A stretch of DNA of 64,000 bases from Candidatus Bathyarchaeota archaeon RBG_16_48_13 (GTDB lineage: Archaea > Thermoproteota > Bathyarchaeia > RBG-16-48-13). The translations under genes were made by a program, and so were the position numbers. The stretch's first letter is position 1, and each line of letters opens with the position of its first letter. Location: contig MEZH01000001.1 in assembly GCA_001775995.1 (NCBI GenBank), positions 32,001 to 96,000 on the forward strand. Reading direction: 5' to 3'. Under the pieces are notes generated by a model. It was not told where the DNA came from. It made no database searches and saw only the letters and a list, made by a program, of their open reading frames with translations. Below are positions 17,066 to 28,279 of this stretch, piece by piece.

Positions 17066-17185
17066 ACATGAGAGAACAGATTCAGCAAACCTTTTAAATT
17101 GTTCGCATCCATCACACAACTTACTCTGGACCAGAAAGCGTAGAAACGTTTTCTGGCAAATAGTGTGTGCCGAGGGGCCTTATAG

Positions 17186-17319
17186 GCCGGGGTTGGTCTC
17201 CGACTACCGAAAGCTCAGCCTGGTTAGATGAGTGACCTCAAACCAAAGCGCCAGACCTCTCTATGAGAGGAGCGTTACTCATAATCTGGAGATCGTGGGT
17301 TCGAAACCCACCCTCGGCT
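17186..17319 (+). tRNA. Elongator tRNA-Met(CAT), introns at 8/9 (17194-17211), 22/23 (17228-17246) and 30/31 (17255-17276)
   Basis: Three BHB/relaxed-BHB motifs (CGGG/ACCG, GGTT/AACC, CGCC/AGCG); the spliced product is a 75-nt cloverleaf with CCAGA/TCTGG stem. Confidence 0.85.
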
Positions 17320-17324
17320 TTACT

Positions 17325-18652: not shown

Positions 18653-18882
18653 AGAATCTGAAACCTCGGCTACAGTTAGGAGTATCCTATCCCGGATTAT
18701 GTAATTTCTGGAGTAGTTCTTATAAGCGTAATTTCTTCAAATAAAACATTTCTTGTCAATGGATTCGTTGGGAGAAAATTGGAAAAACATGGGCAATCCA
18801 GTAGGATTGCCGATTTTCGGGGAGGGAAAACATAAAAGCTAATCTATAACCTTCTTGAATGTCAAATGTGCCCCGGCATCGA

Positions 18883-19019
18883 GCCTCGGTACCCAAACCT
18901 TGGGCGAGAGAGCTCAGCATGGTCAGATGCCTTGAGTGCGAAGGCGGGCTAAAGCGCCAGCTTGGTATCCATCAACAAAGAGCTGTAGGTCGCGGGTCCG
19001 AATCCCGCCCGGGGCTCCA
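18883..19019 (+). tRNA. tRNA-Thr(GGT), introns at 8/9 (18891-18910), 22/23 (18927-18952) and 37/38 (18968-18980), CCA encoded
   Basis: Strict BHBs CTCG/CGAG and GGTC/GGCT, relaxed third motif; spliced length 78 nt; T73. Confidence 0.87.
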
Positions 19020-24300: not shown

Positions 24301-24445
24301 CGGGCCCGACGGGAATTGAACCCGTGACCCCCGGATTTCTTCTTTTCTCATTAAAAGTTTCACCGAAGCGCCATTTTCAGGCGACCTCTCCGATGCTCTT
24401 CCTAGCTGAGCCTCCCGGCCGAAACAAAGATCGGCTTACGGGCCC
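24301..24445 (-). tRNA. tRNA-Lys(TTT), introns at 9/10 (24412-24436), 30/31 (24359-24389) and 37/38 (24337-24351)
   Basis: BHB central helices CCCG/CGGG, CATC/GGTG, CTTT/GAAG; spliced length 74 nt. Confidence 0.9.
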
Positions 24446-24514
24446 ATGGACCCGCTAAGAAGCTTTCTCAAACGGAATCTTCCTAATAACTTTTCCTCTT
24501 CCATTTGTTATAGT

Positions 24515-24553: not shown

Positions 24554-24683
24554 GCCCTGGTAGTATAGCCCGGCCTAGTATGTGCGGCTGAACCCGAAAA
24601 AAGGGTAGCCGAATCACCCGCACGACCCGGGTTCAAATCCCGGCCAAAGGAAAGAAAAGAATCTTTCCTACCGAAGGGCGCCA
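24554..24683 (+). tRNA. tRNA-Asp(GTC), introns at 34/35 (24591-24613) and 68/69 (24647-24675), CCA encoded
   Basis: BHBs CGGC/GCCG and CGGC/ACCG; spliced acceptor GCCCTGG/CCAGGGC, G73. Confidence 0.9.
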
Positions 24684-24769
24684 CACTTTGATAGTGCCGG
24701 GGCTTCGCCATTCCATCAATTGACCGGTTGTCATTTTTATAAGCTCCAAGAGCGATAGATCATTTCCAG

Positions 24770-28092: not shown

Positions 28093-28279
28093 CCCGAGGT
28101 AGCTCAGAGCTCACGGGAACAAAACCCTTGAACGGGTAACCTGGTAGAAAAGTGCCCAAGGTTGGGCCACGCCAAAAGCTTCCGGCTGTAGGCATTTGCC
28201 ATGAAGTGCAAGTACTACTCAGCCTATCAGGCTAACAGATACCGGAGTGTCAGGTGTTCAATTCACCTCCTCGGGACCA
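28093..28279 (+). tRNA. tRNA-Tyr(GTA), introns at 15/16 (28108-28139), 22/23 (28148-28176) and 37/38 (28192-28240), CCA encoded
   Basis: C1-G72 acceptor; BHBs GCTC/GGGT, TGGT/GCCA, CTGT/ACAG; spliced length 77 nt. Confidence 0.9.

Follow-up and report, generated by a model that had tools for sequence, protein, structure and literature searches.

A second 5' acceptor strand in the leader of an intron-bearing tRNA-Met gene of Bathyarchaeia as a putative placeholder during splicing

Results

A tRNA-Met gene with three introns and a duplicated acceptor strand

We identified an elongator-type tRNA-Met(CAT) gene in the window (the whole 64,000-nucleotide stretch of DNA analysed, from a genome referred to here as G000) that is interrupted by three introns and preceded by a second version of its own 5' acceptor strand (Table 1). 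The leader copy GCCGAGG starts 17 nt before the proximal strand GCCGGGG. Together with the proximal strand, the 3' acceptor strand CCTCGGC forms six Watson-Crick pairs and a G5.U68 wobble, whereas all seven of its pairs with the leader copy are Watson-Crick, so that the upstream copy is the better partner, as a preliminary description of this DNA had proposed. That description had claimed a perfect helix of 8 bp; seven of these pairs stand, and the eighth, G17176:C17311, does not, as it borrows the last base of the T stem, in which C17311 pairs with G17295. Because this eighth pair is absent from the orthologs, we regard 7 bp as the conserved unit.

After removal of introns 1-3, ARAGORN recognized a 75-nt tRNA-Met(cat), which it accepted with either 5' strand. 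The spliced product folds into a cloverleaf with a 7-bp acceptor stem, U8, a D arm, a T arm with the loop TTCGAAA, and an anticodon arm consisting of a 5-bp stem and a 7-nt loop with U33. The unspliced gene was reported neither by ARAGORN nor by Rfam, where RF00005 gave a partial match only (12.8 bits). N73 is U in the window tRNA-Met (T17319) and CCA is not encoded (17319-17323); in the orthologs of the related genomes G002 and G017, A73 is followed by CCA. The predicted hairpin in the spacer is one pair longer in the minimum free energy structure than had been described, with GGCCT (17176-17180) facing AGGCC (17184-17188) around the loop TAT. This hairpin overlaps proximal nt 1-3 and occurs in G000 only, without a counterpart in the orthologs.

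Table 1. Positions in the window of the tRNA-Met gene, its parts and three further tRNA genes with a complementary flank
Feature	Position	Strand	Characteristics
tRNA-Met(CAT), including leader copy	17169-17319	+	elongator-type
Leader copy GCCGAGG (putative placeholder or decoy)	17169-17175	+	7/7 Watson-Crick with 3' acceptor strand
Spacer GGCCTTATAG	17176-17185	+	10 nt; hairpin with start of proximal strand; G17185 pairs with T17215
True 5' acceptor strand GCCGGGG (nt 1-7) and U8	17186-17193	+	GCCGGGG at 17186-17192
Intron 1, position 8/9	17194-17211	+	18 nt; relaxed BHB
Exon, A9 and D arm to G22	17212-17227	+	spliced product
Intron 2, position 22/23	17228-17246	+	19 nt; clean BHB
Exon, nt 23-30	17247-17254	+	spliced product
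Intron 3, position 30/31	17255-17276	+	22 nt; read from sequence, spliced product checked
Exon, nt 31-73	17277-17319	+	anticodon loop CTCATAA, T arm, CCTCGGC at 17312-17318, discriminator T17319
tRNA-Thr(GGT)	18870-19019	+	
Thr leader copy GCCCCGG	18870-18876	+	perfect to CCGGGGC at 19009-19015
Thr proximal strand GCCTCGG	18883-18889	+	U4.G69 in stem, U4-A in BHB
Thr intron, position 8/9	18891-18910	+	4/4 BHB
tRNA-Lys(TTT)	24301-24457	-	strict 9/10 BHB using all of nt 1-7; CCA not encoded
Lys leader element TAGCGGGTCC	24457-24448	-	2 nt before G1
tRNA-Asp	24554-24706	+	intron 68/69 in 3' acceptor strand
Asp trailer element CCGGGGCTTC	24697-24706	+	10 bp with leader GAA and GCCCTGG

The intron at position 8/9 consumes the proximal acceptor strand

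A BHB motif was defined by a 4-bp central helix, in which the four exon nucleotides ahead of the 5' bulge pair with the four intron nucleotides ahead of the 3' bulge, together with two bulges of 3 nt and a flanking helix that is 2 bp or longer. Intron 1 is an archaeal BHB intron of the relaxed class, with three of four central pairs (C17188-G17190 with C17207-G17209, plus a G.A mismatch), an outer helix of 3 bp (17185-17187 with 17213-17215) and an intron helix of 4 bp (17195-17198 with 17202-17205), and the same geometry is found in G002 and G017. G5 wobbles with U68 in the acceptor stem, yet inside this BHB it pairs with C17207 in Watson-Crick fashion. The BHB pair at position 5 covaries, being G-C in G000 and A-T in G002 and G017. 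Because the latter two have a proximal A5 and an intron T, this pair has been altered on both sides from A-T to G-C, with the copy still matched to U68.

For intron 2, the scan for BHB geometry gave the central helix GGTT (17222-17225) with AACC (17241-17244) and an intron helix of 4 bp; intron 3 has 3/4 central pairs and a 6-bp intron helix (17256-17261 with 17265-17270). Nearly every tRNA gene of G000 carries introns. The splicing endonuclease domain PF01974 was not detected in the 75%-complete G000 assembly even at E = 10, and the gene is probably missing from this assembly. Two EndA paralogs are present in each of five relatives, which fits the broad-specificity heterotetramer described in PMC5829648.

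Leader copies accompany introns at positions 8/9 to 10/11

In the G000 assembly (0.85 Mb, 75% complete) 33 tRNA genes were catalogued. Each leader (-35 to -1) was scored against the 3' strand of its own gene, with 962 mismatched leader/3'-strand combinations as control. Ranks 1-6 of 32 in duplex energy went to the six tRNAs whose intron lies at 8/9 to 10/11 (Met, Thr-GGT, Lys-TTT, Phe-GAA, Ser-TGA and Gln-TTG); the classes were set by intron position alone, and three of the six genes were first noticed via the repeat, so that this six-for-six ranking is not fully independent. Their duplexes range from -15.1 to -22.0 kcal/mol (null mean -6.2, sd 2.9), and the Met value of -15.3 kcal/mol was reached by 0.6% of the 962 mismatched same-genome combinations. 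None of the 26 remaining tRNA genes has an intron between positions 8 and 11.

The BHB central helix uses proximal nt 3-8 in all six tRNAs, and the outer helix takes nt 1-2 and often also -1; central pairs number 4/4 in Thr, Lys, Ser and Gln and 3/4 in Met and Phe. No leader copy was found in multi-intron tRNAs with introns elsewhere (t19, t25, t29, t30, t33). The window also holds a tRNA gene of about 184 nt (28093-28276, + strand) with several introns and the acceptor strands CCCGAGG and CCTCGGG (C1-G72), without a leader copy.

The tRNA-Thr(GGT) gene repeats the situation of Met at another base. Its copy has C4 where the proximal strand has U4, as the Met copy has A5 where the proximal strand has G5; in both genes the copy is perfect to the 3' strand, and the proximal base is wobble-compatible in the stem and forms a Watson-Crick pair in the BHB. 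We read this pattern as the signature of a proximal strand that serves two partners and of a second strand that is selected for its 3' partner only. The leader of tRNA-Lys(TTT) carries a shifted complement, which pairs over 10 bp with nt 67-76, including N73 and trailer.

Mirror symmetry predicts that an intron in the 3' acceptor strand should be accompanied by a copy in the trailer, and this is the case for tRNA-Asp, the sole tRNA gene of G000 with an intron in that strand. Its trailer element ranks first of 33 in trailer/5'-strand pairing, at -20.0 kcal/mol (runner-up -11.2). In G000, a flank complementary to whichever acceptor strand an acceptor-consuming BHB leaves unpaired occurs specifically in such tRNAs, on the corresponding side of the gene. 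Outside the window (contig C7:103289-103381), a tRNA-Gly(GCC) gene without a 5' intron has an imperfect copy, GCGGTTG, 18 nt before GCGGTCG, perhaps a placeholder in decay since the intron was lost.

The copy is conserved in relatives

The sequence tgtGCCGAGG precedes the Met gene in G002 and G017, both from another family of the same order. The spacers of these orthologs are gaacg and caaca (5 nt), against 10 nt in G000. Intron 8/9 and copy are both absent from the Met genes of G004 and G010, and in G006 the intron is gone and a decayed copy, GCCGGGA followed by aacga, remains. A pattern search for the Met copy gave about the same number of matches with the control pattern as with the real pattern, and the hits were therefore inspected individually: the six comprised three tRNA-Met genes (G000, G002, G017), one other tRNA with a chance copy (L019) and two non-tRNA sequences. 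An order-wide 8-mer pattern was too loose and gave mostly coding hits, from which only two tRNA-Met loci were taken.

The double strand of tRNA-Gln is present in many families of the class, with a 10/11 intron in 20 of the 22 loci inspected. An unbiased tRNA-Gln search of 301 Bathyarchaeia genomes, in which the proximal strand and intron start were fixed and 28 upstream bases were free, showed the copy in 24/24 intron-bearing tRNA-Gln genes (17 AGCCCGG, 7 GGCCCGG). When retrieved, the seven with GGCCCGG proved to be intron-bearing tRNA-Gln genes, and most of the 17 with AGCCCGG match loci that had already been inspected; a separate group of about 17 hits is rRNA. No intron-bearing tRNA-Gln without a copy was seen; the copy-less hits that were fetched (20/20) are not tRNA genes, and the few further copy-less hits lie in G072, repeating a fetched hit of G080, and in G076 (several). 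Two tRNA-Gln genes, L075 (G225) and L077 (G065), have AGCCCGG 3 nt upstream and lack the 10/11 intron, which points to a recent intron loss or to some additional role of the copy. For the copies before intron-less genes as a group (L075, L077 and Gly-GCC), a further role or slow decay may account.

The same arrangement was found for tRNA-Phe in about 24 fetched loci. In the tRNA-Phe leaders L022-L043 (family f27) the spacer ends in gcgg or cgcgg, which is able to pair with CCGC of the copy and would form a possible extra layer of leader structure. Across relatives, the spacer between copy and strand can be as short as 3 nt. Judged by sequence analysis, the copy is very probably a leader element that is conserved, specific and paired with the 3' acceptor strand, and it is widespread, occurring in many families of the Bathyarchaeia class and hence no peculiarity of one gene.

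Promoter spacing suggests a transcript start at the copy

Promoters were placed with a fixed TATA consensus, as an EM motif search drifted to a non-TATA motif and was discarded. A strong TATA box, gtttaaat, ends 24 nt (G002) and 26 nt (G017) before the distal Met copy. In the tRNA-Phe loci of relatives the box ttttaataaa ends about 23 nt before the copy, and clear TATA boxes end 25, 24 and 22 nt before the copies of G000 Phe, Ser and Gln, respectively. Ordinary tRNA genes of G000 mostly have the box 24-33 nt before G1. The spacing to the copy thus resembles the usual distance from TATA box to +1, so tRNA transcripts most likely begin at the leader copy, and the transcript of a copy-bearing gene would most likely start 12-20 nt ahead of the mature 5' end. 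The preliminary description had named a transcription start downstream of 17176 as the point on which its proposal would fall; the promoter spacing in G002 and G017 does not indicate such a start, and the Met promoter of G000 itself is weak and unclear.

Folding calculations

RNAfold predictions that included the leader placed the 3' strand on the copy with P 0.97-1.0 in five of the six tRNAs (Met 1.0) and with 0.34 in Ser, freeing the proximal strand. With the native leader, the modelled cost of forming the BHB averaged 7.5 kcal/mol; it rose to 11.0 when the copy was replaced by poly-A and to 11.8 when the leader was absent. The poly-A control was used instead of a shuffled copy, which was uninformative because shuffled GC-rich 7-mers still pair. 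The cost for Met with native leader, with poly-A and without leader was 9.0, 8.7 and 11.1 kcal/mol at 37 °C and 9.3, 11.3 and 12.2 kcal/mol at 65 °C, respectively, and the BHB pair probability was only 0.09 with the leader. The Met spacer hairpin of G000 competes for proximal nt 1-3. These model calculations lend weak thermodynamic support for the window tRNA-Met. After in silico splicing, and considering secondary structure only, the copy-bound form of Met was favoured by 5.0 kcal/mol at 37 °C and by 2.4 kcal/mol at 65 °C; the final strand exchange would therefore need help from tertiary folding or from RNase P capture.

Discussion

A proposed placeholder for the 5' acceptor strand

We favour, with reasonable confidence, the explanation that the leader copy is a transcribed placeholder, standing in for the 5' acceptor strand so that the BHB of the 8/9 intron could form before RNase P removes the leader. 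The sequence implies, and covariation supports, that the 8/9 intron can be cut only if proximal nt 1-6 pair with the intron and with G10-U12 as a BHB. The 3' acceptor strand, which is made last, would otherwise pull the proximal strand out of this motif. A copy at the 5' end of the transcript would offer the 3' strand a perfect 7-bp partner, a pairing that the folding predictions reproduce, and both structures could coexist. Once the splicing endonuclease and a ligase (RtcB) have excised intron 1, the freed proximal strand would displace the copy, aided by tertiary folding, and an RNase P cut between 17185 and 17186 would remove copy and spacer to leave a mature tRNA with G5.U68. RNase P RNA is present in G000. 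In co-transcriptional order, the BHB would form long before the 3' strand exists and the copy would spare it from invasion; we infer that such a co-transcriptional view fits better than equilibrium. With the trailer taking the part of the leader for 3'-side introns, a general and conserved archaeal RNA-folding device, in which a spare acceptor strand in the flank is a placeholder required for splicing, seems to us slightly more probable than not.

The alternative that comes closest is that the pairing of the copy with the 3' strand serves a purpose other than BHB formation, for example protection of a 3' end that would else be single-stranded from exonucleases, a helix for RNase Z or the CCA-adding enzyme, or a timer by which RNase P and the synthetase are kept away from a tRNA that is still unspliced. 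The helix of copy and 3' strand is predicted at P ~1, the modelled BHB gain for G000 Met is small and the copy persists in a few intron-less genes, all of which such a purpose would accommodate. What makes it unlikely in our judgement is that the copy is tied to introns whose motif takes the acceptor strand and not to general intron load. This explanation also overlaps with the placeholder, because the 3' strand is unpaired only while the proximal strand is occupied in the BHB.

A functionless relic of a local duplication, by slippage or intron gain, is very improbable. Across families, spacers differ freely in length and sequence but the 7-mer does not change; where the copies differ, it is the distal one that matches the 3' strand; and the association is 6/6 in G000 and 24/24 for tRNA-Gln. 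Short direct repeats close together are what a duplication would leave behind, and decayed versions are known from G006 Met and G000 Gly-GCC, but the intron is not flanked by the repeat, and the mirror arrangement of Asp is unexpected from a single duplication mechanism.

We give hardly any credence to the reading in which the distal copy is the real 5' exon, 17176-17192 is a fourth intron (position 7/8) and the mature tRNA has A5-U68. The preliminary description had raised a fourth acceptor-stem intron and found it unconvincing, and we came to the same judgement: no BHB forms, and U8 follows only the proximal copy. All eight registers were examined in seven instances (Met from three genomes, and Thr, Phe, Ser and Gln), with intron 1 either present or removed, and in none of the seven was there a register with at least three central pairs and a flanking helix that keeps the distal bases. 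The better acceptor stem formed by the distal copy, its persistence as preferred partner after three introns had been removed in silico, and its position at the usual tRNA +1 distance from the TATA box are the points that would speak for such an intron. However, U8 would be stranded between two introns as an exon of a single base, and in relatives the putative intron would measure just 10-12 nt, of which 7 nt are the proximal strand and the remaining 3-5 nt a spacer that could not by its length be an intron. The shifted complement in the Lys leader, which reaches N73 and trailer, cannot be an exon, and the changes in the proximal strand are exactly wobble-compatible, as expected for later pairing with the 3' strand.

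Further candidates were rejected. One large intron that begins at the distal copy and extends through intron 1 would leave no U8. Leader removal by the endonuclease through the AU-rich half-motif ATAG (17160-17163) and TTAT (17180-17183), which has four central pairs, was dismissed because it has no flanking helix and probably lies upstream of the transcription start. An att site or target-site duplication does not apply, because what separates the repeats is a spacer of 3-17 nt rather than an inserted element.

Significance of a leader placeholder

If the placeholder reading is true, it offers a simple and testable answer to how a BHB competes with a very stable acceptor stem, and it explains the persistence of introns next to or inside that stem. 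Pre-tRNA flanks would then fall into three functional classes, the other two being ordinary leaders and the flanks of split tRNAs. For annotation, tRNA finders miss or mis-start such genes, as ARAGORN and Rfam did with the tRNA-Met gene.

Comparison with known systems

Transient helices in flanking sequence that hold a strand until later processing are familiar from ordinary leader/trailer pairing in pre-tRNAs and from the placeholder helices of rRNA maturation. We know of no link between these helices and intron splicing, nor of a duplicated acceptor strand among them. The BHB motif is, to our knowledge, the sole recognition signal of archaeal splicing endonucleases.

Non-canonical and multiple BHB introns have been described in archaeal tRNA genes of Thermoproteales and other lineages (PMC4090602; PMC4033280; motif definition restated in 10.64898/2026.10.13.758758). 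Introns 1-3 of tRNA-Met are like these known introns in being short and in having a 4-bp (or 3/4) central helix, 3-nt bulges and at least one flanking helix. The texts searched on known BHB introns describe motif and enzyme; in tRNA-Met there is in addition a flanking element that would free the acceptor strand. A leader or trailer element with a placeholder role is absent from the reviews PMC4090602 and PMC4033280 and from the papers PMC3218864 and PMC3728597, and the words 'leader' and 'decoy' are absent from a preprint on Asgard tRNA introns (10.64898/2026.10.13.758758). A full-text literature search, with subscription papers outside its scope, returned no published description of such a helper element.

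The split tRNAs of Nanoarchaeum equitans and Caldivirga maquilingensis are alike in that base pairing by leader and trailer sequences outside the mature tRNA presents the splicing machinery with the structure it needs (PMC4090602; PMC4033280). In split tRNAs, complementary flanks pair mutually and form a BHB, and the endonuclease cuts them off. The tRNA-Met leader is unlike them, as it forms a plain, bulge-free 7-bp helix with an exon strand, lies outside the BHB and would be taken off by RNase P. Copy and exon nt 66-72 pair without interruption, T17168 faces T17319 and the helix stops short of the trailer, which sets the arrangement apart from the flanks of split or permuted genes. Permuted tRNA genes (Thermofilum pendens, PMC3218864; Cyanidioschyzon merolae, PMC3728597) were likewise recognized by a promoter too far upstream and by tRNA-derived sequence between it and the 5' end; in those genes, however, the upstream piece is the true 3' half, whereas in tRNA-Met it is a second copy of the 5' strand, followed by a complete collinear gene.
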